From Patescibacteria group bacterium (GTDB taxonomy: Bacteria; Patescibacteriota; Patescibacteriia; 2-01-FULL-39-33), in contig JBAZQS010000004.1 in NCBI GenBank assembly GCA_041645075.1, positions 1-58,146 of the forward strand: DNA of 58,146 nt, given 5' to 3'. How positions within the stretch are numbered: position 1 is the stretch's first letter; each line of letters opens with the position of its first letter. Shown in pieces: positions 1 to 54,091 of this stretch. The notes under the pieces are model-generated. The model did not search any database. It worked only from the letters and a program-made list of their open reading frames with translations, and was not told the DNA's origin. A program made the translations under genes and the position numbers.

Positions 1-1229
1 GTCACGATGGCCGCCGCTTTTTTCATAATCGGCTCCCAATCCGGGTCGGTCATTTCCGCGACCAAGACCTCGCCCGCCTTAAAATCCGGCAACTGGCCGA
101 CATTCTTAATCAACCGAGCCCGGCCTTGGCCAATTTTCACGCCCACGCTGTCACCCGCCAAAAGCAACTTGCCCGCTTGCGTCAAAAAATATTCTTCTAA
201 TACATTGGGGTCTTTTTGCGAGCCGACTGTTTCCGGTCTGGCCTGCACGATAAACAACTGGCCACTCTGGCCGTCTTTGGCCCATTCAATATCCATGGGC
301 CGCTTATAATATTCTTCTATGGCCAAGCCCCATTTAGACAAAATTAAAATTTCCGGGTCGCTTAAAGCATATTTCTTTCTTAAAATTTTTGGCACGATGG
401 CGTTTTTAGTCGGTTGGCCGGGGTCATGGCTATAAATTAATTTTTTGGCTTTGTCGCCTACCTGCCGCGAAATAATCGGCTTAAAGCCGGCCGCTAAAGT
501 TTTTTTAAAAATATAATATTCGTCGGGATTAATCACGCCCTTAACCACATATTCGCCCAAACCATAGGCGGCATTGATTAAAATGACATTGCTATTGCCG
601 CTTTCCGTATCAATGGTGAACATCACGCCCGCCGTGGCCAAATCAGAACGAACCATTTTCTGGACGCAGACCGAGAGGGAAACTTTCTCATGCTTGAATC
701 CTTGGTCAATGCGATAAGAAATGGCGCGGTCCGTAAAAAGCGAGGCAAAACATTTTTTGACCGCGGCTAAAATCGGCTCTTTGCCCCTGATGTTTAAAAA
801 CGACTCTTGCTGGCCGGCAAAAGAAGCGCTGGGCAAATCCTCGGCCGTGGCCGAGGAGCGGACCGCCACGTCAACAAAATTTTGCTCATAATTTTCTGAT
901 AATTTTCTATAATTAGCAATAATAACTGATTGCAAGTCCTCTGGCAACGGCGCGTTTAAAATAATGTTCCTAATTTCCTCCCCCTTTTGATTAAGATTAT
1001 TTTTATTGGTTGATTTTAAAATTTTAAAAATCTCTTTCTTGATTTTCGCCTTTTTTAAAAAATAATTATAAGCCAAGGCCGTGATGGCAAAGCCGTTGGG
1101 AATTTTTAGGCCTTTCTTGGTGAGGTGGCGATACATTTCACCCAGTGAAGCGGTTTTACCGCCCACCAAGCCAATGTCCTTGATAGAGATTTTTTGAAAC
1201 CAAATGATGAGCTTTTTATTTTTTAGCAT
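1..1229 (-). CDS. ppsA: phosphoenolpyruvate synthase (pyruvate, water dikinase), N-terminal ~409 codons; 3' end runs off the window
   Basis: Not in the ORF track because it is open at the window edge. Minus-strand translation from ATG at 1229 gives MLKNKKLIIWFQKISIKDIGLVGGKTASLGEM. Further on it gives VAVRSSATAEDLPSASFAGQQESFLN, PMDIEWAKDG, IVQARPET and TDPDWEPIMKKAAAIVT, which are typical PpsA motifs. Confidence 0.8.
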   Translation of the reverse strand, partial: MLKNKKLIIWFQKISIKDIGLVGGKTASLGEMYRHLTKKGLKIPNGFAITALAYNYFLKKAKIKKEIFKILKSTNKNNLNQKGEEIRNIILNAPLPEDLQSVIIANYRKLSENYEQNFVDVAVRSSATAEDLPSASFAGQQESFLNIRGKEPILAAVKKCFASLFTDRAISYRIDQGFKHEKVSLSVCVQKMVRSDLATAGVMFTIDTESGNSNVILINAAYGLGEYVVKGVINPDEYYIFKKTLAAGFKPIISRQVGDKAKKLIYSHDPGQPTKNAIVPKILRKKYALSDPEILILSKWGLAIEEYYKRPMDIEWAKDGQSGQLFIVQARPETVGSQKDPNVLEEYFLTQAGKLLLAGDSVGVKIGQGRARLIKNVGQLPDFKAGEVLVAEMTDPDWEPIMKKAAAIV

Positions 1230-1242
1230 AGGCGGTTTGAGA

Positions 1243-2739
1243 TTAAATATTCTCCACCTTGATTAAATTGGCCTGGCCTTCATAGCCAAAGGGATGGCCG
1301 GCGACCACAACCACCCGATCCCCTTTTTTTAAAATTTTATGCGCGAGGAGCAATTTTTTAATTTTGCCCAAGAGCCGGTCAAAAGAAGCGGCAAAGGGCA
1401 CGATATACGACTCAACGCCCCAGCTTAGGCCAAGCTGATTAGCGGTTTTGACGGCGGGCGTGATGGCGACAATGGGCACGGCCGGCCGAAAACGGCAAAT
1501 ATTGCGCGCCGTAAAGCCTGAGGTGGTGGCGCAAACAATTAATTTGGCGTTGGCCACATCTTCGGCTAAGTCCTGGGCCATGAAACTTATTATCTGGGTA
1601 ATGGAATTTTGATTTTTAAATTCGTCTTCCTTGGCTTCCTGCTCAATAATTTCTCGGCCCTCAACCTCTCGGGCAATTTTATTCATGACTTGGACCGCTT
1701 TGAGCGGATACTTGCCGGTGGCCGTTTCGCCGGAGAGCATAATGGCGTCCGTGCCGTCTAAAATCGCGTTGGCCACATCAGAAACCTCGGCCCGAGTCGG
1801 CAAGGGATTGCGAATCATGGAGTCAAGCATCTGCGTCGCCACAATGACCGGCTTGCCGGCCTTGCGGCACTCATCAATAATTTCTTTTTGAATCAAGGGC
1901 AAGTCCTCAAAGGGCACTTCAATGCCCAAATCGCCTCGGGCGATCATAATGCCATCGGCCGCTTCCAAAATTTTCTTAAAATTTTTCACGGCGCCGGGGC
2001 GTTCAATCTTGGCGATAATCCGAGTGTGGACCCCGCTAATCTTGCCTTTGGCTTCGGGTTTTTTTAAATTATATTTTTTTTCGGCCTGATGATATTTTTT
2101 TTCCAAAAGAAAAATCTTTCGGCGCAAATTAATAATGTCTTTGGCTTCTTCAACAAACGACAGGGCGATGAAATCAAGATTATTTTTTATGCCGAATTCA
2201 ATATCGGCCAAGTCCTTTTTGGTAATGGGCGCGCATTTGATCACTGATTTGGGAAAATTTATGCCTTTATGCGATTTGATAATGCCGCCGGTTTTCACTT
2301 GGCATTTAATCGCTTTATTTTTAACGCCGGTGGCCGTTAATTCTATGGTGGCATCGTCAATTAAAATCGGGTCGCCTTTTTTGACGTATTTATAAAGATT
2401 GGCATATTGAATTGGCACATAGAGGCGCGTGGCCTTGCTGGGCGCTGAATAATTTTCCGGCGCCAAGAATACTTCTTCGCCCCGCTTAACGGCCAAGCCG
2501 TCTTTGGCCACCTGGCCGATGCGAATCCTCGGTCCCTGTAAATCCTGCATAATCGCCAATTTGACCTTTAACCGGGCGGCCACTTTTCTCAAATTATTAA
2601 TCAGCTTTAAATGGTGGTCGTAAGTGCCGTGGGAAAAATTAAGCCGCGCCACATTCAAACCGGCTTTAATCATTTTTTCCATGGTGGTTTTTGCTTCCGA
2701 AGACGGACCGATGGTCGCCACAATTTTGGTTCGTTTCAT
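1243..2739 (-). CDS. pyk: pyruvate kinase
   Basis: KIVATIGPS, NFSHG and MIARGDLGIEVP motifs; 498 aa with a Lys-rich internal insert. Confidence 0.9.
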   Translation of the reverse strand: MKRTKIVATIGPSSEAKTTMEKMIKAGLNVARLNFSHGTYDHHLKLINNLRKVAARLKVKLAIMQDLQGPRIRIGQVAKDGLAVKRGEEVFLAPENYSAPSKATRLYVPIQYANLYKYVKKGDPILIDDATIELTATGVKNKAIKCQVKTGGIIKSHKGINFPKSVIKCAPITKKDLADIEFGIKNNLDFIALSFVEEAKDIINLRRKIFLLEKKYHQAEKKYNLKKPEAKGKISGVHTRIIAKIERPGAVKNFKKILEAADGIMIARGDLGIEVPFEDLPLIQKEIIDECRKAGKPVIVATQMLDSMIRNPLPTRAEVSDVANAILDGTDAIMLSGETATGKYPLKAVQVMNKIAREVEGREIIEQEAKEDEFKNQNSITQIISFMAQDLAEDVANAKLIVCATTSGFTARNICRFRPAVPIVAITPAVKTANQLGLSWGVESYIVPFAASFDRLLGKIKKLLLAHKILKKGDRVVVVAGHPFGYEGQANLIKVENI

Positions 2740-2759
2740 AAAATAAATCCGGATAAAAA

Positions 2760-3086
2760 TTATAATTTAATCTTTTTCACAATATCCTTGACAATCGGTA
2801 TTTCCCAATATTCGCCCTGCAGGGTTTTGAAGAAAGCCAAAAGCGACACCACGACCAACAACAGCCAAAACAGCCAGCCGATTATGGGAATCCAAAAAAA
2901 TAAAGAGCCGACCAATTCAATCACGAATAAAACCAAGCCCTGTTTCGCGTGGGCGCTGGCAAAGGGACTGCTTTTCTTAAAGAGCAAGGGAATGAGGCAC
3001 AAAACCCACAAATAAGAAATGGCGGCGACAGTTTTGTTGTCCTCTATGTCTTTTTGTTCAAAAACTTTTTTTGTCTCTTCTGGCAT
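2760..3086 (-). CDS. small membrane protein (DUF4870-like)
   Basis: 108 aa with 2-3 hydrophobic helices and an HAKQGLVLF-type motif. The family assignment is from memory only. Confidence 0.5.
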   Translation of the reverse strand: MPEETKKVFEQKDIEDNKTVAAISYLWVLCLIPLLFKKSSPFASAHAKQGLVLFVIELVGSLFFWIPIIGWLFWLLLVVVSLLAFFKTLQGEYWEIPIVKDIVKKIKL

Positions 3087-6596: not shown

Positions 6597-7759
6597 ATGA
6601 CTTTCCCCCGGTTAAATATCCCACTGGGGTCAAATTTATTTTTTAAGTCCCGCCGATATTTTAATTCAAGATTATCTAAAAATTGTTTCTTTTTCAAGCC
6701 GATGCCATGCTCACCGCTTACTTTTCCGCCCAATTGATTTACTAAAGCATACATTTCTTTTATTTTTTCTTTTTCCTCGGGTCTAAAATGGGGATGAAAA
6801 ATACCAACGCCAATGTGCCCGAAAACCGGCACGGCGTTTTTTGAAAACCAATCCAACATTTCTTTGACGCCGGACTCGGGCACTAAGGGGTCTTCAATAA
6901 TCGGATAACCGCTGCCAATCATTATGGGCGCGATGCCTTCTCTTTTATGCCAAAATTTTAACACCTCAACCTCGCTCTTATTAGGCCCCTCAATTTCCGC
7001 AAAAAGATAATATTTTTCTTCTAAACCCAGGCGCGAAGCGATCAGGGGAGAAATAAATTCTAAAGAAAGTAGGCCGGGAATTTTTTTCCAATTTCCAACC
7101 ATCGCCAATAAGTCGGCCACGTTATTACCGCTGGCCATAATCACATAGGTCTCTTCAATTTTATTAACGAGTTTTAATTTCATTTTTACCATTAAGCCAT
7201 TTAATCCTTCCGAGCCGACAATTTCTTTTATTTCATCGCCACTGATATTAATGATTTCGCCATTACCGTCCACCAGCCATAATTCCTCAACCCAATCGGA
7301 CATCCGGCCGAATTTTAACGACCAAATCCCGGCCGCATTGGTGGCGGCCATTCCGCCCAAAGTACAAACCGAGTGGCTGCCGGGAATCACGGGAAAAACT
7401 AAATTATATTTTTTTAAAAATTCATTAAGCTGATCTAAAACCACCCCCGGCTGGACCATGGCCGTCTTATCGTTCTCATTAACTTCAATAATTTGATTCA
7501 TTTTGGAAAAATCAATCACCAGGGAATTTTGCGGCACGCAACCGCCCACCAGTCCGGTACCGGCGCCCCGAGCCGCCAAATCAAGGCCTGATTTTTTTGC
7601 CTCCTCAATCACTTGAATAACCTCATCAATTGATTCCGGCCAGACGCAAAGCGCGGCCGAACCAACCACCCCGGAGGCGTCCGTGGAACAAGCCAGCAAG
7701 TCCTCATTATTATAAGAGGACTGGCAGTGGTTTAGTTTTTTAATTAATTCCGACACCAT
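6593..7759 (-). CDS. FAD-binding oxidoreductase (GlcD / D-lactate dehydrogenase family)
   Basis: FAD_binding_4-like region (ARGAGTGLVGG) and C-terminal GEHGIG motif. At 388 aa it is shorter than typical GlcD. Confidence 0.75.
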   Translation of the reverse strand: MVSELIKKLNHCQSSYNNEDLLACSTDASGVVGSAALCVWPESIDEVIQVIEEAKKSGLDLAARGAGTGLVGGCVPQNSLVIDFSKMNQIIEVNENDKTAMVQPGVVLDQLNEFLKKYNLVFPVIPGSHSVCTLGGMAATNAAGIWSLKFGRMSDWVEELWLVDGNGEIINISGDEIKEIVGSEGLNGLMVKMKLKLVNKIEETYVIMASGNNVADLLAMVGNWKKIPGLLSLEFISPLIASRLGLEEKYYLFAEIEGPNKSEVEVLKFWHKREGIAPIMIGSGYPIIEDPLVPESGVKEMLDWFSKNAVPVFGHIGVGIFHPHFRPEEKEKIKEMYALVNQLGGKVSGEHGIGLKKKQFLDNLELKYRRDLKNKFDPSGIFNRGKVI

Positions 7760-17540: not shown

Positions 17541-17600
17541 TTTTTCATGCCATAGGCAGATCCCATGCCAGAGGCAGGCGCAGCGCCTCTAGCGGAAAAT
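17541..17600. repeat. short repeat module in the groEL 3' UTR (second copy inside the GT4 gene at 21672-21709)
   Basis: TTTTTCaTGCCATAGGCAGAtCC ... GCGGAAAAT is shared with 21672-21709. This copy carries an extra 28-nt hairpin (AGAGGC..GCCTCT) nested in the middle. Confidence 0.55.
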
Positions 17601-19614: not shown

Positions 19615-19763
19615 TTACTTTGAATTACGAAACTCCTTCTAAACCCCCTCCCCTTTATAAGGGGAGGGTTGGGGAGGGGTAAAAATATCAGAAAAAGCAT
19701 TAACCCCCTCTTGGTCTCCCCCTTATTAAGGGGGAGAAAAATGAGTTTCGTAATTCAAAGTAA
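19615..19763. repeat. 149-bp MITE-like composite palindromic element in the groES 5' UTR
   Basis: 21-nt perfect terminal inverted repeats (TTACTTTGAATTACGAAACTC / GAGTTTCGTAATTCAAAGTAA). They enclose two G+C-rich hairpins: CCCTCCCCTT-TAT-AAGGGGAGGG and TCTCCCCCTTA-T-TAAGGGGGAGA. Confidence 0.75.
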
Positions 19764-20060: not shown

Positions 20061-20792
20061 TCAGGAAACTACGGAACGAGCGCGCGAACCGAAATGGGCA
20101 CCAGACGGGCGGGAGTAGTCGACGTGGAACCTGCCGTTGTGCCAGTAAGCGCTGGGGACATCGCCACCGGCATAACGCGAACCGGCGCAAAGCGTCAAGT
20201 TCTTGACGTCCAAGTGCTTGCCGGTCTCGCTAAAACACTCCAACTCCAGAACCAGCCGTTCCATTAGGGTAATACCCTTGTGGTTCTCACTGGCGAGCGT
20301 GTTGGCCGACTTGCCCTTGTTTTCCTCGTCGGCTTCCGCCCGATCCCTGACCCAGATGACATATGTTTCCGTTGCCAGCCGGTCATTGGTCGAGACCGCT
20401 TTGTCCAGGTCATCCACATAACGCCAGCAAGGGAAATGCTTGGCGCACATGTCATAGACCTGATTGGGCGTCAGACTTTTAGCCACCACAATGAGGCGGT
20501 CAAAGCCGGGCTGCTGTTCGGGAATTTTGAGATTGGACGGGTCCAGCTCAAGGCCGAAATATTCTTGGTAGAACTTTTTCCAGGAGGCGAGCTGATCGGC
20601 CAAATCAATGCCCGGCAGCAACAGCGCTTCACTTAAAACCCTCTCCAGATCCTTGGCATTGCCGATCCAGCCCTGGGCCGTGGTTGAATCCATTTTCTTC
20701 CAAATTTTGGCCAGGGCCTTGATAACCGCGGTCACGAACTCCGCAAATTGCGGAATAACATCCAGGACATTCCCATTGGTTTTCATGAGCAT
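20061..20792 (-). CDS. hypothetical protein (compositionally atypical orphan)
   Basis: 243-aa ORF, visibly G+C-richer than its neighbours, with no motif I recognise. Several spurious overlapping ORFs on both strands are typical of G+C-rich coding DNA. Confidence 0.5.
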   Translation of the reverse strand: MLMKTNGNVLDVIPQFAEFVTAVIKALAKIWKKMDSTTAQGWIGNAKDLERVLSEALLLPGIDLADQLASWKKFYQEYFGLELDPSNLKIPEQQPGFDRLIVVAKSLTPNQVYDMCAKHFPCWRYVDDLDKAVSTNDRLATETYVIWVRDRAEADEENKGKSANTLASENHKGITLMERLVLELECFSETGKHLDVKNLTLCAGSRYAGGDVPSAYWHNGRFHVDYSRPSGAHFGSRARSVVS

Positions 20793-20910: not shown

Positions 20911-22317
20911 TTATCTAAATTTAGATAATGTTATAATTTTTTTATATAACTCCAAATACTTTTTTGCCTGAATTTCTATGGTAAATTCTTGCTCGCATTT
21001 TTCTCTGGCCCGTGAACATAAATTTTGATAATTTTCATAATCCAAATCCAAAACCCACTTGATTCCACTCGCTAAATCCTCAACTTCAAACGGCCGGGCC
21101 AGATAACCGCTTTTTTGATGCTCAATCAGATCGGGCAAACCGCCGATATTAAAAGCGACCACGGGCGTGCCGCAAGCCAATGACTCCAGAACCGTATTGG
21201 GCAGATTATCCTGAATTGACGGCGCCACTAACACATCAGCGGCGCTGTAAACAATTGACAAGGCGATGTCGTCATTAAATTTGCCGAGATAATAAATGGG
21301 ACAGTTTAAGCCAATTTTTTCTTTTGGTTTAGAGGCGCCAAAAATTGCCAAACAGACCCCTCCCCAACCCGTTCCAGGGCAGAGCTGAATGCTCTCAGGG
21401 TCGCATTCATCTACGCTCGTCTTCGCCTCGCTTCTGCCCGTCTGATTACAGACCCCTTGTAAAGGGGAGGGAGAGTTACGGGAACACAAACAATCAATGG
21501 CGGATTTTAAATAGGAAAATCCCTTGCGCGGATTATCCAGTCCGTTCATCGCGCCAAAAAGAATAATTTTTTTATCCAACGGCAGATTTAAAATATTTCT
21601 GGCGATATTTTTATCCAGCGGCTTAAATATTTTCGTATTCACGCCGTAAGGAATGGTACAAATAGGATAATTTTTTCTGCCATAGGCAGACCCGCCTTTG
21701 GCGGAAAATAAATAACTTTCTTGAGCGCATTTAGTCAGCCACCGGCTGGGCGCGACCATGGTTAAATTTTTTAGATTTTTTAAAACTTTTTCTTTTCGGC
21801 GCCAAACCCACTTATCTACATCAAGGCCTGTTTGATTTTTCGGCCTATTGCCCCGATTATACCCCTCCCGATATCTTATATCGCCTTCAGCCACATAATG
21901 CTCGGCGCCGCAAAACGGCCACATATCATGAAATGTCCAGACAATGGGACAATTTATTTTTTTAAAATCCTCGGGCTTCATATAACCGCGATTAAACCAA
22001 TGGACATTGACAATATCGGGATTAATTTCGCGAAGTCGGCCGAAATCAACCGAGGAAATCACGGCCGGCGACTTAAAGGGGTCTTCTTTTTTAAATAATA
22101 AAAATCTGGCCGCGTCTTCTATGGCCGGACCGGCCAGTTGATTTAAAAATTTTTTCCATTTTGTTTCCGGACCCAAAACCGCCAAGTCATCGCTGAATTT
22201 TTTTTGGACCATCATCCGTGATTCTATTCCCAAATCAATAAGGCCACGATGCAAATTATAGGCGGGCTTTGAGGCCCCGCCTTTTATATCCGAGGTGCTG
22301 ATGATGATTATTTTCAT
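20911..22317 (-). CDS. family-4 glycosyltransferase carrying in-frame repeat insertions
   Basis: C-terminal GT-B motif NTVLESLACGTPVVAFNIGGLPD. The ~40-aa segment NSPSPLQGVCNQTGRSEAKTSVDECDPESIQLCPGTGWGGVC is encoded by a repeat element. Confidence 0.75.
   Translation of the reverse strand: MKIIIISTSDIKGGASKPAYNLHRGLIDLGIESRMMVQKKFSDDLAVLGPETKWKKFLNQLAGPAIEDAARFLLFKKEDPFKSPAVISSVDFGRLREINPDIVNVHWFNRGYMKPEDFKKINCPIVWTFHDMWPFCGAEHYVAEGDIRYREGYNRGNRPKNQTGLDVDKWVWRRKEKVLKNLKNLTMVAPSRWLTKCAQESYLFSAKGGSAYGRKNYPICTIPYGVNTKIFKPLDKNIARNILNLPLDKKIILFGAMNGLDNPRKGFSYLKSAIDCLCSRNSPSPLQGVCNQTGRSEAKTSVDECDPESIQLCPGTGWGGVCLAIFGASKPKEKIGLNCPIYYLGKFNDDIALSIVYSAADVLVAPSIQDNLPNTVLESLACGTPVVAFNIGGLPDLIEHQKSGYLARPFEVEDLASGIKWVLDLDYENYQNLCSRAREKCEQEFTIEIQAKKYLELYKKIITLSKFR
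21355..21475. repeat. ~120-bp nested G+C-rich palindromic element inside the GT4 ORF
   Basis: An outer CCCC..TT/AAGGGG-type module (as at 19650-19680) is interrupted by a core that is the reverse complement of 52320-52393: GACGGGCAGAAGCGAGGCGAAGACGAGCGTAGATGAATGCGA ... GCATTCAGCTCTGCCC. Confidence 0.75.
21672..21709. repeat. short repeat module inside the GT4 ORF (copy of the groEL 3' UTR module)
   Basis: TTTTTCTGCCATAGGCAGACCCGCCTTTGGCGGAAAAT. It encodes SAKGGSAYGRK in the host frame. Confidence 0.5.
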
Positions 22318-22332
22318 TTTAATTTAATCGCC

Positions 22333-23841
22333 TTAACTTTCAAAATCAACTTGCCTGAAAACAAACGCAAGGCCTATCCACCAAATCATAATGCCAACAT
22401 ATTGCGTCCAAAGATAATGGTCAAACAAGCCAATCAGGCCCAAAGCTGGCCACAAAACCAATCCCGCCAAATTTTTATTTTTAACGGAAAATATTATGGC
22501 GTAAAAATAAAAAAATAAAAAAATAAAAAAGCCGATAAGGCCCAGCTCCGCCCAAACCAACAAAAAAATGTTGTGAACGGGCTGGTATTCATTGGTTTTT
22601 AAATTTGGATTTTGCTTATATAAATACCAAGTATAATTGCCCAAACCCGCGCCCAACAACCATTTATCTTTGATAATTTGTTCCGCCCCTTTCCTTAAGT
22701 CCGCTCTCCGGGCCAAGCTAATCCGCTCTAAATTTTCCCGGGCGGAAAAACGGGTGAACAATAACGGCCAATAAATTACTGATAAACAGCCAATCAATAT
22801 TATAATAGACGCGGTAATCTGCCATAACTCTTTTAAATATAATTTTTTAGCCGAACCCGGCTCGGGTTTTAAATATAGAGAGATGGTGGCAAAACTATTT
22901 TGTTGCGAAATTTTTGACTTTTTGAGCGAGACAAGGAGGGCCAGTAAAAAGATATGAGCCGTAGCAGCAGCTACGGTGAGAATCTTTTTGCGCCAGCCCG
23001 ACGAAGTCGCAGCCAAAAAGGACAAATTGCAGCAAAAATAGTTTTGCCACCATCTCAAAATATAGGCGAATAGGAAAATCAAATAGCCGACGCCCGCGCC
23101 CAGCCAAGCCGAACGGGAAAAGCTGAAAAAAATTCCGGCCGAAATAATTAAAATCAAGGCGATCAATAGTAATTTCATTTTCGGCTTGGCTAAATAATAT
23201 TTAAAATAAATAATCAAAGCCAAGAAAAAACCAAGCAACAAAAAACCGCCTAAAATATTCGGGTGGGGAAAACTGCCATACGGCCTTAACCAGAAACCGC
23301 TTGCTTCAATGACTACCGCTCCGACATCGCCGGGCCGATGGCCGGCCAAGCCCAGCCATTTGTTGGCCGCGACGGCTTGAGACAAAAATTGCCCAATGGC
23401 TAAAACCGCCTGAACCGCTCCGGCCGAAACGAGCGCCCAGTTTATTTTTTTTATATTAAATTTAAAATTTAAAATCAAAAAAAATAAAATAATGCCTTCG
23501 GCCAATTTAAACCACCAATAAAATGCCAGCGGTTTATCGGCGCTCCAAAAAATTGACAGAGAGGCCCATAAGAAAAAAATCCAAATCGCCAATACCGCCA
23601 ATAATTTTTTCCTATTGATTGACTTTAAATCAATTGAATATTTTCTGGCTCCGGCCCAGACGATTAACTGTAAAATCAAAATCAGCCACAAAATAATTTC
23701 CGACCCATACAAGCCATATGTGCCATATTGCCATTTACCGCCATTTAACATACCCTCCCGCCAAATCCAAACCGTCTGCCAGGGCAAAAAAAATAAAAAT
23801 AATAAAAACAGATATTCAATGACTTTTTTAATCTTGGCCAT
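22333..23841 (-). CDS. O-antigen ligase / Wzy_C-family polytopic membrane protein with in-frame repeat insertion
   Basis: More than 10 TM helices and the FSFSRSAWLG motif. Residues RWWQNYF...NSFATIS are encoded by a 177-bp TIR element. Confidence 0.65.
   Translation of the reverse strand: MAKIKKVIEYLFLLFLFFLPWQTVWIWREGMLNGGKWQYGTYGLYGSEIILWLILILQLIVWAGARKYSIDLKSINRKKLLAVLAIWIFFLWASLSIFWSADKPLAFYWWFKLAEGIILFFLILNFKFNIKKINWALVSAGAVQAVLAIGQFLSQAVAANKWLGLAGHRPGDVGAVVIEASGFWLRPYGSFPHPNILGGFLLLGFFLALIIYFKYYLAKPKMKLLLIALILIISAGIFFSFSRSAWLGAGVGYLIFLFAYILRWWQNYFCCNLSFLAATSSGWRKKILTVAAATAHIFLLALLVSLKKSKISQQNSFATISLYLKPEPGSAKKLYLKELWQITASIIILIGCLSVIYWPLLFTRFSARENLERISLARRADLRKGAEQIIKDKWLLGAGLGNYTWYLYKQNPNLKTNEYQPVHNIFLLVWAELGLIGFFIFLFFYFYAIIFSVKNKNLAGLVLWPALGLIGLFDHYLWTQYVGIMIWWIGLAFVFRQVDFES
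22880..23056. repeat. 177-bp TIR element, genic copy (in frame in the O-antigen-ligase-like ORF)
   Basis: GAGATGGTGGCAAAACTAT ... ATAGTTTTGCCACCATCTC termini and a central CGTAGC-N4-GCTACG hairpin. Homologous to 28695-28871. Confidence 0.85.
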
Positions 23842-28694: not shown

Positions 28695-28871
28695 GAGATG
28701 GTTACAAAACTATTTTATCTATAAATTTAGGACTTTTTGAGCGAGACAAGGAGGGCAAGCGAAGAGATTTGAAGCGTAGCAGTAGCTACGGTGAAAATCT
28801 TTTCGCGCCAGCCCGACGAAGTCGTAGCCAAAAAGGACAAATTTAGAGAAATATAGTTTTGTAACCATCTC
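28695..28871. repeat. 177-bp TIR element, intergenic copy
   Basis: GAGATGGTTACAAAACTAT ... ATAGTTTTGTAACCATCTC termini. The same internal organisation as 22880-23056. Confidence 0.85.
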
Positions 28872-28915
28872 ATTGTCATAACTATATCAAAAAAATAAAT
28901 AAAGTGAAAGTGTCA

Positions 28916-35960: not shown

Positions 35961-36005
35961 TGATTTTGATGTTTCTTGTTAAAAATGTCTAACTATAAAA
36001 AATTT

Positions 36006-36055
36006 GTCCGCGTAGCTCAGTGGATAGAGCAGTAGCCTTCTAAGCTATTGGTCGT
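36006..36055 (+). pseudogene. outer tRNA-Arg(TCT) 5' portion (positions 1 to ~50); its 3' acceptor strand is at 36206-36215
   Basis: 50 nt identical to the first 50 nt of the complete tRNA at 36096-36168. The T-arm is replaced by a 20-nt inverted repeat (36056-36075 / 36186-36205). Confidence 0.7.
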
Positions 36056-36095
36056 CCCCCACCATTTGCTCTCATAAATAAAATCGCTTGCTCTT

Positions 36096-36168
36096 GTCCG
36101 CGTAGCTCAGTGGATAGAGCAGTAGCCTTCTAAGCTATTGGTCGTAGGTTCGATTCCTACCGCGGACG
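36096..36168 (+). tRNA. tRNA-Arg(TCT)
   Basis: Hand-folded cloverleaf: GTCCGCG/CGCGGAC acceptor, GCTC/GAGC D-stem, anticodon loop CTTCTAA, T-arm GTAGG-TTCGATT-CCTAC; 73 nt. Confidence 0.85.
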
Positions 36169-36233
36169 CGAACCGCAGGCGAAAAATGAGAGCAAATGGT
36201 GGGGGACCGCGGACGATATTGTGCTGGCGATTG

Positions 36234-51417: not shown

Positions 51418-52080
51418 ATGGCGCGTTTTAAAGATAGAGAAAAAGCTTTAGCTCTCAGAAAACAAGAAATGAGCTATAGTCAAATAAAGAAAATCTTGGG
51501 AGTAAGTAAAAGTACTTTGAGTCTTTGGCTTAGGGATTATCCCCTTTCTAAACAAAGAATAAGAGAACTTAGAGATTGCAACGAACAAAGAATTGAACGA
51601 TATCGAGAAACAAGACGCAAAACAAGAGAAAAAAGATTAAAAGAAACTTACGACATTCAAAAAAAATTATTGTTACCATTAACAAAAAGAGAGCTTTTTA
51701 TTGCGGGTTTGTTTCTTTATTTGGGTGAAGGTACAAAATATCGAATTTTTGGATTATCCGTTTCTAACACAGATCCTTCTGTAATCAAATTTTTCATCTA
51801 CTGGCTTAATAAAATTTTATCTGTTCCAAAAGAAAAAATAAACGTACAATTACAGTTATATAATGATATGGACATACAGAAAGAAATTAATTACTGGTCA
51901 ACAATATTAAAAATTCCGTTAAAACAATTTAGCAAACCATACATCAAAGAAACTTCGAGCAAAAGAATAAATCATAAAGGAAGCTTTGGTCATGGCACTT
52001 GCAATGTGCGAATTAATGACGTTAGACTTGGAGAAAAAATAATTATGAGCATAAAAACAATAAGCGATAAATATCAGTAA
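51418..52080 (+). CDS. free-standing HTH + LAGLIDADG-like homing-endonuclease-type protein
   Basis: N-terminal resolvase-type HTH (MSYSQIKKILGVSKSTLSLWLRD) and a LAGLIDADG-like motif (LFIAGLFLYLGEGTK). Very AT-rich. It lies immediately upstream of a disrupted tRNA cluster. Confidence 0.5.
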   Translation: MARFKDREKALALRKQEMSYSQIKKILGVSKSTLSLWLRDYPLSKQRIRELRDCNEQRIERYRETRRKTREKRLKETYDIQKKLLLPLTKRELFIAGLFLYLGEGTKYRIFGLSVSNTDPSVIKFFIYWLNKILSVPKEKINVQLQLYNDMDIQKEINYWSTILKIPLKQFSKPYIKETSSKRINHKGSFGHGTCNVRINDVRLGEKIIMSIKTISDKYQ

Positions 52081-52087
52081 ATTTTGT

Positions 52088-52163
52088 GGGCGTGTAGCTC
52101 AGTGGTAGTAGCACAAACCTTATAAGTTTGGGGTCGCAGGTTCGATCCCTGCCACGCCCACCA
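52088..52163 (+). tRNA. tRNA-Ile(TAT) with encoded CCA
   Basis: GGGCGTG/CACGCCC acceptor, anticodon loop CTTATAA, T-arm GCAGG-TTCGATC-CCTGC, 3' ACCA. There is one D-stem mismatch. Confidence 0.7.
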
Positions 52164-52174
52164 TATAAAAATTT

Positions 52175-52247
52175 GGGCACTTGGCGCAGTGGTTAGCGCG
52201 TTGCTTCGACATAACAGGGGTCGATGGTTCGAATCCATCTATGCGCA
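52175..52247 (+). pseudogene. degenerate tRNA-like sequence
   Basis: Good D-arm (GCGC-AGTGGTTA-GCGC) and T-arm (GATGG-TTCGAAT-CCATC). The acceptor pairs at only 4/7 positions, and the anticodon loop TCGACAT has C at position 33. Confidence 0.35.
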
Positions 52248-52262
52248 TTGAAAAATTAATAA

Positions 52263-52312
52263 GGACGGCTAGCTCAGTTGGTTAGAGCGTCTCGTTGACA
52301 TCGAGGAGGGTC
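52263..52312 (+). pseudogene. tRNA-Val(GAC) 5' fragment (acceptor 5' strand through the anticodon arm)
   Basis: GGACGGC-TA-GCTC-AGTTGGTTA-GAGC-G-TCTCG-TTGACAT-CGAGG. No matching T-arm or GCCGTCC 3' strand lies downstream. The fragment is followed directly by a repeat element. Confidence 0.65.
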
Positions 52313-52319
52313 GCGAAGC

Positions 52320-52393
52320 GACGGGCAGAAGCGAGGCGAAGACGAGCGTAGATGAATGCGAGCAAGTGCGAGCATTCAGCTCTGCCCGGGAAC
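52320..52393. repeat. G+C-rich hairpin module fused to the tRNA-Val fragment (reverse-complement copy inside GT4 at 21355-21475)
   Basis: GACGGGCAGAAGCGAGGCGAAGACGAGCGTAGATGAATGCGA ... GCATTCAGCTCTGCCC. Outer stem GGGCAGA/TCTGCCC, inner stem GAATGC/GCATTC. Confidence 0.75.
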
Positions 52394-52420
52394 ACAAGTT
52401 CAATTCTCATAAAACAATAA

Positions 52421-52494
52421 GGACATTTAGCTCAGTTGGTTAGAGCGTCTCGTTGACGTCGAGAAGGTCAGTGGTTCGAATCCACTAATGTCCA
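52421..52494 (+). tRNA. tRNA-Val(GAC)
   Basis: GGACATT/AATGTCC acceptor, anticodon loop TTGACGT, T-arm AGTGG-TTCGAAT-CCACT; 74 nt. Confidence 0.85.
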
Positions 52495-52555
52495 CCCTGA
52501 AAATCTCTTTAAAAATTAGGGTGCATTGCGCCCTGATTTTTGTTAAAATGAATAT

Positions 52556-54091
52556 ATGAAAGAAATTGAGCAAAAATTAATCAATTGGCAAGAAGCTGTC
52601 CTAAAACAGCCGGCTTTTAATTTTATTAAAAAAATAATTAAACAATTTCCCGAAGCCAATATTTATTTGGTCGGCGGCGCGGTAAGGGATATTATCCTTG
52701 AAAGAGAAACAAAAGATTTTGACTTTGTGGTCGGAAAAATAGAAGCGAAAGACATAGAAAAATTTTTAGCCAAAGAAGGAAAAATAAATTTGGTCGGCAA
52801 AAGTTTTGGGGTGTTTAAATTCGTTCCCGACCCCCTCCTTCACCTCCCCCTTAATAAGGGGGAGGGGGGTGGGGGTTTAGATCCCATTGACATTGCCCTG
52901 CCCCGCACCGAGCACGCGAGTATGACCGGCGGTTATCGCGACTTTGAAATTCAAAGCGACAAAAATTTGCCGATTGAAGAGGACTTGGGCCGGCGCGATT
53001 TCACCATCAATGCTCTGGCTTGGGACATTAAAAATCAAAAATTAATTGATGAATTCGGCGGGATAAAAGATTTAGAAAATAAAATTATCAAAGCCATTGG
53101 CCAGCCCGAGCAAAGATTCCAAGAGGACTATACGAGAATGTTAAGGGCCATTAGATTTTCCTGCCAGCTTAATTTTGAAATAGAAAACAAAACCTTATCC
53201 ACCATCAAAAAAAAGGCGGAAGAAATCAGATCAATACCGAAAGAAAGAATCAATGAAGAATTGACGAAAATCATTATGTCCGATAACGCCGAAACCGGAT
53301 TGCGTTCAATGCAAAAAATCGGCTTGATTAAAATTTTAATTCCGGAACTGGAAGAAGGCGTGGGCGTAGGGCAAAACAAGGAACACATTTATGAGGTGTT
53401 TGAGCACAATATCCGCTCTCTCGGCGCGGCGGCCCAAAAAAAATTCAAACTGGAAATTCGGCTGGCCGCCTTATTTCATGATATCGGCAAACCAATGGCC
53501 AAAGAAGGCGACGGTCCTAATTCTACTTTTTATAATCATGACCAAATGGGCGCTAAGATGACCAAGGAAATCTTAAAACACTTGAATTATCCAAATGATA
53601 TTATAAAAAAAGTCACTCATTTGGTGCGTTATCATATGTTTTATTATGCCTTGGATACGGTGAGCGACGCCGGCGTCAGGCGCTTGCTTAATCGGCTCGG
53701 CCAAGAAAATATTGAGGACTTTATTAATGTCAGAATCTGCGACCGCTTGGGCATGGGCCGGCCTAAGGCCAAACCGTGGAAATTAATTGAGCTGGAAAAA
53801 CGATTCAAAGAAGTGGTCCTGGAACCGATTACGCCGAAAATGTTAAAGATTAACGGCCGGGAAATAATGGCCAGCCAAAAATTAAAACCCGGCCCAAAAA
53901 TCGGCTTGCTCTTGAACGCTATTTTAGGAGAAATTTTAGAAAACCCCGAAAAAAACGATAAAGAATATTTATTAAAAAGAGTTGAAGAATTGAATGAATT
54001 TTCGGATGAAAAGCTAAAATCAATGCATCCGGATATTAAATTTTATGAAGAAGAAAGAAAACGGCTCCTTCATCAAAAAAATAAAAGTTAA
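52556..54091 (+). CDS. cca: CCA-adding tRNA nucleotidyltransferase with HD domain, carrying an in-frame palindromic insertion
   Basis: GGAVRD and RDFTINA motifs and an HD region (LFHDIGKP). The segment PDPLLHLPLNKGEGGGGLDP is encoded by a repeat. Confidence 0.8.
   Translation: MKEIEQKLINWQEAVLKQPAFNFIKKIIKQFPEANIYLVGGAVRDIILERETKDFDFVVGKIEAKDIEKFLAKEGKINLVGKSFGVFKFVPDPLLHLPLNKGEGGGGLDPIDIALPRTEHASMTGGYRDFEIQSDKNLPIEEDLGRRDFTINALAWDIKNQKLIDEFGGIKDLENKIIKAIGQPEQRFQEDYTRMLRAIRFSCQLNFEIENKTLSTIKKKAEEIRSIPKERINEELTKIIMSDNAETGLRSMQKIGLIKILIPELEEGVGVGQNKEHIYEVFEHNIRSLGAAAQKKFKLEIRLAALFHDIGKPMAKEGDGPNSTFYNHDQMGAKMTKEILKHLNYPNDIIKKVTHLVRYHMFYYALDTVSDAGVRRLLNRLGQENIEDFINVRICDRLGMGRPKAKPWKLIELEKRFKEVVLEPITPKMLKINGREIMASQKLKPGPKIGLLLNAILGEILENPEKNDKEYLLKRVEELNEFSDEKLKSMHPDIKFYEEERKRLLHQKNKS
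52829..52876. repeat. G+C-rich palindromic module inside cca
   Basis: CCTCCCCCTTA-A-TAAGGGGGAGG (52843-52865) with C-run and G-run flanks. The core is the same as at 19709-19731. Confidence 0.75.

Follow-up and report, generated by a model that had tools for sequence, protein, structure and literature searches.

Rickettsia palindromic elements (RPEs; Ogata et al. 2000, as summarised in PMC10969869) are described in that summary as repeated, hairpin-forming and non-autonomous sequences that lie in frame in unrelated housekeeping genes and are translated as segments compatible with the fold of the host protein. Here we describe a comparable case in a 58,146-nucleotide (nt) stretch of a Patescibacteria group bacterium (GenBank assembly GCA_041645075.1, contig JBAZQS010000004.1, positions 1 to 58,146; hereafter the window), in which 39 extra residues of a GT4 glycosyltransferase are probably translated selfish DNA from two repeat families, inserted in frame in the manner of an RPE. 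Short palindromes of A+T-rich genomes that spread and insert into one another are also known from fungal mitochondria, where these G+C-rich clusters or double-hairpin elements occasionally lie in frame in coding genes, as in yeast var1.

The GT4 insert resembles RPEs in being repeated, in frame, absent from orthologues and placed in a surface loop. By contrast, it has no sequence relation to them, occurs in a different phylum (Patescibacteria), forms no conserved peptide family, and is built from modules of 30–36 nt and an 82-nt core rather than from elements of ~150 bp; moreover, two element families are combined here, the inner of which is otherwise tied to tRNA genes. The insert behaves like an RPE and is not a member of the RPE families. 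Fungal mitochondrial clusters differ from it in being organellar rather than bacterial, in having no sequence relation to it and in lacking a tRNA-gene link of the kind seen here. Like miniature inverted-repeat transposable elements derived from IS200/IS605, the core shows hairpins close to its two ends but is itself devoid of terminal inverted repeats, and the similar left flank of its copies (AGGGG before TC) recalls insertion 3′ of a short fixed target; unlike those elements, its copies often carry duplicated tRNA pieces in their flanks, which the IS200/IS605 family does not produce.

The GT4 locus was analysed together with contigs from four public metagenome runs (X1–X4) and with a covariance model (R1) built from relatives of the core. 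It contains the following features, alongside an uninterrupted copy of the outer module elsewhere in the window.

20911–22317, minus strand: GT4 (GT-B) glycosyltransferase gene, an intact open reading frame (ORF) of 468 amino acids (aa) that hosts the insertions.
21357–21473, minus strand: composite insert, 117 nt (39 codons), translated SPSPLQGVCNQTGRSEAKTSVDECDPESIQLCPGTGWGGV, supported by orthologue alignment, a relative's contig, predicted local distance difference test (pLDDT) values and G+C content.
21453–21473, minus strand: 5′ part of the outer module, consisting of C-arm CTCCCTCCCC, loop TTTACAA and GGGG; it matches the intact module at 19644–19679 and has the same loop as a copy in X2.
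21371–21452, minus strand: core, 82 nt, with boundaries from an X2 contig, an R1 score of 71.2 bits and a predicted fold.
21440–21453, minus strand: core part P1, the small hairpin GTCTG-TAAT-CAGAC, whose first G is common to the module.
21378–21438, minus strand: core part, the scaffold.
21371–21376, minus strand: core part, TGGAAC.
21357–21370, minus strand: 3′ part of the outer module, GGGTTGGGGAGGGG, comprising the rest of the first G-arm, TT and the second G-arm; it pairs with the C-arm in the predicted fold.
19644–19679, plus strand: intact 36-nt module without core, CCCCCTCCCCTTTATAAGGGGAGGGTTGGGGAGGGG, in the groES leader.

The translation of the GT4 ORF contains ...SRNSPSPLQGVCNQTGRSEAKTSVDECDPESIQLCPGTGWGGVCLAIFG..., within which the insert peptide runs SPSPLQ...GWGGV over 39 residues, the predicted peptide TSVDECDPESIQLCPGTGWGGVCLAIFGASK spanning its end. 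These residues have no counterpart in any of the 16 orthologues aligned with the query (alignment A2, 17 GT4 proteins), and nearly all of the 120 best homologues are 406–440 aa long (orthologues 406–428 aa), compared with 468 aa in the query. The insert has a G+C content of 0.60, versus 0.41 for the remaining ORF. In a relative represented by a 337-nt contig of X4, the flanks of which are ~82–92% identical to the window, 40 nt replace the 154 nt at 21352–21505, which makes its gene shorter by 114 nt (38 codons); on the coding strand these 40 nt can be read as ...SALALLPKENNFC, resembling the short loop of the orthologues. A phmmer search of the insert peptide against 1.84 billion representative proteins gave two weak matches, both to unrelated tandem-repeat proteins, and a word-based search with residues 280–323 returned the query alone. 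Contig depth in the metagenome runs was 60–320 over the core compared with 11–12 in its flanks. Taken together, these observations show that the 39 residues are an insertion built from repeated DNA modules, one of which interrupts the other, and narrow to 117 nt (21357–21473) the segment of about 120 bp described in an earlier reading made from the sequence alone.

The 36-nt module follows the plan C-arm, A/T loop, G-arm and second G-arm, which in the intact copy at 19644–19679 reads CCCCCTCCCC-TTTATAA-GGGGAGGG-TT-GGGGAGGGG. The arms of the GT4 composite are CCCTCCCC and GGGGAGGG of this module, and on the minus strand the composite is laid out as CTCCCTCCCCTTTACAAGGGG / TCTGTAATCAGAC-GGGCAG...CTGCCC-TGGAAC / GGGTTGGGGAGGGG, or, on the coding strand with its flanks, as ...CGTAAC-T-CTCCCTCCCC-TTTACAA-GGGG / TCTGTAATCAGAC-G-GGCAGAAGCGAGGCGAAGACGAGCGTAGATGAATGCGACCCTGAGAGCATTCAGCTCTGCC-C-TGGAAC / GGGTT-GGGGAGGGG-TCTGTTTGGC..., slashes marking the joints between module and core. 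An X2 contig from another locus holds an intact module with the same TTTACAA loop and no core, in which position 21370 is joined to 21453 with a single base between them (A on the coding strand). Because this contig joins 21370 to 21453, the core is defined as 21371–21452, 82 nt that replace one base. The break in the module falls between GGGG and GGGTT, where the G-arms start, and outside the TTTACAA loop. The sequence-only reading was right that a core splits an outer module related to an intact hairpin pair (19650–19680 in that reading), but placed the split in the loop, whereas the X2 contig places it in the G-arm. The predicted fold has the C-arm base-paired to the second G-arm, with the core enclosed between them. 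The ends of the composite are accordingly complementary to each other (C-arm versus G-arm), whereas the core alone has neither terminal inverted repeats nor a target-site duplication.

Entry into coding DNA without a break in the frame, as the sequence-only reading had supposed, is borne out by the arithmetic, the module being 36 nt or 12 codons and the core a net 81 nt or 27 codons. The composite is free of stops in two of six frames, one of which is the frame in use, and in the sense orientation the core is free of stops in one of three frames, again the one in use. The gene consequently remains open, and the insert would form a disordered excursion of the protein.

The assembly across the insert is supported by contigs from two unrelated samples. 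X1, a groundwater run in which 98% of the words occur and the probable source sample, covers 21250–21600 without any difference by overlapping contigs (21250–21348, 21319–21430, 21401–21456, 21428–21482 and 21453–21600, the outer two extending further) at a depth of 8–12.5x, mostly 11–12.5x. X2, a landfill run from another study, has 20941–21416 identically in a single 476-nt contig. The segment 21300–21500, for which the earlier reading had asked about assembly support, is thus backed by the X1 chain and, up to 21416, by the X2 contig. Another X2 contig links the core to sequence that flanks the tRNA-Val copy described below, and because X2 holds both the GT4 stretch and the tRNA-Val junction, the same strain with both core copies exists in that sample.

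The ORF that carries the insert is intact. Pfam recognises Glycos_transf_1 (PF00534, 72.5 bits) and Glyco_trans_1_4 (PF13692, 71.2 bits), a match that begins only at profile position 68, past the insert, whereas the N-terminal Glyco_transf_4 (PF13439) is marginal at 27.8 bits against a cut-off of 28.5, although it is present in the precomputed domain lists of the orthologues. The window is A+T-rich, and the closest protein relatives carry Patescibacteria labels. In alignment A2 all 53 invariant family columns are retained in the query, with K265-G266 invariant; of the conserved acidic motif D-x7-E, E378 is invariant and D370 almost so. Among proteins of solved structure the best relatives are the GT4 enzymes 6kih, 2jjm and 8dvw, and alignments to 6kih and other solved GT4 structures break in two around the insert. 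AlphaFold, run on alignment A2, gave a mean pLDDT of 85.9 and a predicted template modelling score (pTM) of 0.86 for a model of two domains with alternating strands and helices, in which pLDDT falls below 50 solely at residues 284–316. The order of elements in its C-terminal domain is strand 250–255, helix 267–278, insert and strand 321–326, and the insert sits at the end of the helix that begins at the conserved R264-K265-G266.

In this model the insert site is a loop within the C-terminal Rossmann domain, leading from its first helix to its second strand. The location between the two Rossmann-like halves, which the sequence-only reading had given as established, is thus contradicted by the AlphaFold model. 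The GT-B fold is predicted with confidence and the insert is predicted to be a disordered surface excursion; that the fold tolerates the insert is likewise indicated by prediction, the site being a disordered loop in an otherwise confident model. In GT-B enzymes in general the corresponding loop faces away from the catalytic, inter-domain cleft, and by analogy the insert-bearing helix end of the query would also point away from it. The insert contributes three cysteines which, with the native Cys322 just beyond, make four within ~33 residues.

The core has a second copy in the window, at a broken tRNA-Val gene, which comprises the following features.

52310–52393, plus strand: second core copy, recognised by a 42-nt exact block and by the R1 model; its parts are P1 (GTCGC-GAA-GCGAC, 52310–52322), the scaffold (52324–52386) and GGGAAC (52388–52393).
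52263–52312, plus strand: 5′ fragment of tRNA-Val(GAC), with the acceptor 5′ strand, D-arm, anticodon arm and variable loop.
52394–52408, plus strand: T-arm remnant ACAAGTTCAATTCTC, without the 3′ T-stem or acceptor strand, as read from the sequence.
52421–52496, plus strand: intact tRNA-Val(GAC), called by ARAGORN and by the Rfam tRNA model (72.6 bits), 12 nt past the broken copy.

The 42 nt at 21401–21442 are fully complementary (100%) to 52320–52361, a match that cannot be chance in 58 kb, and the two copies also have in common the block GAGCATTCAGCTCTGCCC and GGAAC. They differ only in the small 5′ hairpin and the apical loop, the pairing of P1 being kept through changes on both sides (GTCTG/CAGAC in GT4, GTCGC/GCGAC at tRNA-Val). 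Each scores 71.2 bits (E ~5e-19) with R1, and nothing else in the window exceeds 12 bits. The 50-nt tRNA-Val fragment, 88% identical to the start of the intact gene at 52421 and called by neither ARAGORN nor Rfam, runs directly into the core, its terminal GTC being the start of P1, and its 3′ strands are missing. Both the description of the core as the reverse complement of 52320–52393 and its recurrence at a broken tRNA-Val therefore hold.

Several oddities of the nearby tRNA genes are recorded here as separate observations. The first tRNA-Val(GAC) of the same cluster (52174–52248) scores 36.7 bits with Rfam, has ~4 of 7 acceptor pairs and looks chimeric or degenerate, and the cluster includes a tRNA-Ile with anticodon TAT (52088–52163), uncommon in bacteria. 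Elsewhere, a complete tRNA-Arg(TCT) at 36096–36169 lies within a split copy of itself (36004–36216), the 5′ 52 nt of which are duplicated exactly at 36004–36055 and the 3′ stump of which, ACCGCGGACG, is at 36207–36216; a 20-nt inverted repeat surrounds the inner gene (CCCCCACCATTTGCTCTCAT at 36056–36075, ATGAGAGCAAATGGTGGGGG at 36187–36206). The break falls at the start of the T-stem, as in tRNA-Val.

To place the core among its relatives, genome and metagenome contig collections were scanned with one pattern made from its apical hairpin, which returned 16 genome-contig and 21 metagenome-contig loci. Four of these were chance matches in high-GC coding DNA and were set aside, and the other 33 (15 genome, 18 metagenome) have a common scaffold, GGCAGAAG(C/T)GAG - variable hairpin - GAGCGTAGAT - GAATGC - GA..loop..GA - GCATTC - A - GCTCTGCC, which the GT4 core has as GGCAGAAGCGAG...GCGTAGATGAATGCGA-loop-GCATTCAGCTCTGCC. 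The loci are labelled mostly Patescibacteria, Parcubacteria, Buchananbacteria and Moraniibacteria. Five contigs with typical members (L001, L005, L008, L010 and L011) are labelled as Bdellovibrionales or Gammaproteobacteria, which points either to mislabelled or contaminated bins or to a family that extends beyond Patescibacteria. One of them, L008, has five scaffold copies in tandem over ~800 nt (51–818), an array of the element instead of one copy next to a tRNA; none of its 8 kb was called as a tRNA gene.

R1 found 36 copies in the searched sequences, among them just the two known ones in the window, even with filters off. Twenty-five lie at most 400 nt from a called tRNA gene, all on the strand of that tRNA and 22 of them within 102 nt; the remaining copies have no called tRNA nearby, and in those inspected the flanks look like tRNA fragments or contig ends are close. 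The window copy at 52324 is 35 nt from a tRNA, beside a tRNA fragment and an intact tRNA, whereas the GT4 copy is 14,658 nt away from one and is the sole copy among the 36 that is spanned by a genuine long ORF. A second apparent coding insertion, at L015, was rejected, its 647-codon frame being a read-through upstream of the real start codon.

Two types of copy can be distinguished. Type A, which includes most copies, starts with an antisense T-loop (AGGGATTCGAACC) and has a further hairpin at its end, followed by a copy of the 3′ end of the neighbouring tRNA; these tRNA-derived arms enclose the element as the C- and G-arms do in GT4. In type B, a minority (both window copies, L003, L005/L036, L010, L013 and L015), the variable hairpin is reduced or missing (missing from the two window copies, from L005/L036 and from L013), the 5′ side has either a small hairpin or an antisense stretch with GAC at its end, and the 3′ end is GGAAC directly ahead of a T-stem. 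The GT4 copy is without the variable hairpin, the antisense T-loop arm and the tRNA 3′-end copy.

The scaffold is conserved as a structure. Standard pairs occupy 99.5% of cells in the family alignment, compared with 22–38% when partners are slid by 1–3 columns, and changes on both sides of a pair occur in 12 cells, versus 2.3 in shuffled alignments. The outer helix swaps GG/CC for GT/AC, GA/TC and AG/CT, one loop pair is inverted from C-G to G-C in seven sequences, and 13 U-G wobbles occur on this strand only. Helix 2, the apical one, is invariant by ascertainment, since the pattern demanded exact apical hairpin arms and only such copies were sampled, and in helix 1 the two outermost pairs served to set the 5′ boundary, though at fixed homologous positions. 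The core is thus a member of a strand-specific structured family tied to tRNA genes, and the sequence-only reading, which called it a palindromic element, was correct as to the hairpins but described less than is there. Rfam gave no match at the gathering threshold for the element in the window, and none at E up to 10 for a full-length relative. Compared by eye with the hammerhead core and with box C/D, its three-way junction and AGAUGAA stretch did not fit, and the ribozyme and box C/D ideas were dropped. Viral contigs contained no copy of the core or the module, and there is therefore no sign of a phage attachment site.

Junctions between module and core also occur outside the GT4 gene. At least five X4 contigs, which differ from one another in their left flanks, have matches that start at 21354–21356, that is, with the G-arm followed by the core, and another has CCCTCCCC-TCGTCTTG-GGGG ahead of the small hairpin; a contig of X3 reads CCCC-TTTACAA-GGGG, then the hairpin, then the core. 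L013 holds a diverged composite of like layout, CCTCCC-TTTTTTCAAA-GGG / TTGC-GAA-GCAA / scaffold / TGGAAC / GATTAGAAGGGG, at 900–1010, overlapping the last codons and the stop of a 124-aa ORF, and a solo 36-nt module at 7473–7506, 6.5 kb from the composite. The 124-aa ORF looks by eye like a DUF559-type endonuclease. Because such junctions recur on other contigs and metagenomes (X3, X4 and L013), module and core may move as one unit. Two readings follow, between which we see the chances as roughly balanced: the core may prefer the 36-nt module as its target, the module having arrived before the core, or the composite may spread as a unit, with solo modules as its relatives or remnants. Nesting by insertion, as proposed in the sequence-only reading, accordingly stands insofar as one module interrupts the other, whereas movement as a unit fits these junctions as well.

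The GT4 gene and other genes of the window carry further in-frame repeats. The GT4 ORF has a second, smaller one:

21676–21705, minus strand: second GT4 insert, 30 nt, the double hairpin CCGCC-AAA-GGCGG + TCTGCC-TAT-GGCAGA, translated SAKGGSAYGR.

These 10 residues have no counterpart in the 16 orthologues. The double hairpin, with a fold z-score of −3.75, reaches a summed contig depth of 600–3000 in all four runs, versus ~12 in the flanks, and is an extremely abundant mini-repeat. A related copy at 17541–17600, in the groEL 3′ region, has an extra inner hairpin and is a further case of nesting. The CCA-adding enzyme gene (52556–54091) contains an in-frame module of C-arm, loop and G-arm at 52829–52876 (PLLHLPLNKGEGGGG); its orthologues have independent inserts of 5–40 residues at the same loop, several with PLNLPLERGE, and two of them have SAKGG... 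at a second site, the same words as in the 10-residue GT4 insert. The O-antigen-ligase-like gene that adjoins GT4 (ORF 22333–23841) contains in frame a 178-nt element (22880–23057) with 22-nt terminal inverted repeats and 87% identity to an intergenic copy at 28695–28872, and the Wzy_C Pfam match of its protein is stretched, with 214 residues for 149 profile positions. Two other ORFs are recorded as observations: a G+C-rich orphan of 243 aa beside GT4 (20061–20792) has no Pfam or PHROG match, and an ORF of 220 aa directly upstream of the rearranged tRNA cluster (51418–52080) has an N-terminal HTH_23 (homeodomain-like) domain and no catalytic domain match. HTH_23 is a domain type common in transposase N-termini.

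We consider it likely that the extra 39 residues of GT4 are translated selfish DNA from two repeat families. One is a 36-nt hairpin module of a kind strewn about this Patescibacteria genome, and the other is the 82-nt core, a minimal copy of a structured element that normally lies beside tRNA genes or in tRNA gene fragments. An enzyme supplied in trans may have moved the core, or a ready-made composite, as DNA. Its landing site may have been chosen through the resemblance of the module's ...AAGGGG/AGGGTT... to the junction between variable loop and T-stem (...AGGGG-TC/NNNNGTT...); such target mimicry is suggested by the similar flanks of type B copies, in which TC follows AGGGG or AAGGGG on the left, and the right flank mostly reads NNNN-GTT, like the start of a T-arm. 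Selection would then have retained only the frame-preserving event.

Several points weigh against this explanation. The apparent resemblance of the target to the tRNA junction is drawn from five or six junctions. No clear target-site duplication was found, TCT occurring at both ends at lengths unfit for a simple duplication, and the nearby window ORFs that were scanned contain no transposase or integrase domain, Y1 transposase or TnpB. No GT4 allele with the module alone was seen. The support from X1–X4 consists of assembler contigs rather than raw reads. As to translation of the insert, the only matching RNA runs contain 4% of the words, and these are conserved tRNA words. Finally, the strand-specific structure hints at a function of the family's own, which selfish DNA does not explain.

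A further reading, in which the scaffold is the constant part of a nucleic-acid-guided mobile element with exchangeable arms, seems doubtful to us. It would account for arms that match the tRNA T-arm in most copies, the 5′ arm in antisense and the 3′ arm in sense, and that in the GT4 composite, the X3 and X4 contigs and L013 are instead supplied by the C- and G-arms of a widespread hairpin repeat. If it were true, the GT4 copy would reveal the targeting rule (AGGGG-TC / NNNN-GTT) through an event that took place outside a tRNA gene, and the element would move as DNA into any site that imitates the junction of variable loop and T-stem.

Four rival explanations were considered. That the insertions inactivated a decaying GT4 gene whose open frame is luck is unlikely: a composite inserted at random is open in two of six cases, and there are two separate foreign inserts in GT4 and one in the neighbouring gene, but no stop interrupts the 468 codons, none of the 53 invariant family positions has been lost, the model is confident everywhere except in the insert, the sequence is unchanged in two unrelated samples and both inserts are multiples of three in length. 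The conserved strand-specific structure, with its compensatory changes and U-G wobbles, raises the alternative of a role at the RNA level, in which the core is cut out of the mRNA or regulates its translation or stability, in which case the protein might lack the insert, or selection might favour its presence. Each copy close to a called tRNA gene is on the transcribed strand of that gene, and in GT4 the structured strand is the coding strand, which speaks for such a role; yet a length divisible by three and use of the only stop-free sense frame would be needless if the segment were removed, no Rfam family matches, and we know of no bacterial mechanism that excises such a segment from mRNA and rejoins the ends. 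On balance an RNA-level role is quite improbable.

Recruitment of the loop for a protein function, such as a four-cysteine metal or disulfide site on the surface, would find its material in the three insert cysteines and Cys322 within ~33 residues and in an insert unchanged between two samples. However, pLDDT is below 50 throughout, no related peptide occurs in 1.84 billion proteins, and the two samples are nearly identical overall, so that identity between them is uninformative on selection; we regard recruitment as very improbable. An assembly artefact, in which repeats produced a false join inside the gene, is scarcely credible, even though the region consists of multi-copy repeats of the sort where assembler contigs break: the overlapping X1 contigs cover both junctions and the unique P1 hairpin at an even depth of 8–12.5x, the independent landfill run has the left junction in its 476-nt contig, and an open frame would seldom be expected from a random false join. 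The reading of the insert as translated selfish DNA is thus the one we favour.

In-frame palindromic repeats are textbook knowledge for Rickettsia; a literature search found no paper describing them in candidate-phyla bacteria, nothing relevant on these bacteria in connection with tRNA genes and palindromic repeats, and no account of the scaffold family. With at least three genes affected in the window (GT4, O-antigen ligase and CCA-adding enzyme), such repeats regularly change the length of surface loops, and they are a trap for both annotation and assembly. Pairs of proteins with and without an insert amount to a natural test of the disorder that a Rossmann domain can accommodate. That the GT4 copy, alone in its family, was found at a distance from any tRNA suggests that the tRNA-linked scaffold elements are mobile DNA rather than fixed accessory RNA genes, and the flanks of the GT4 copy offer a first guess at what these elements recognise.

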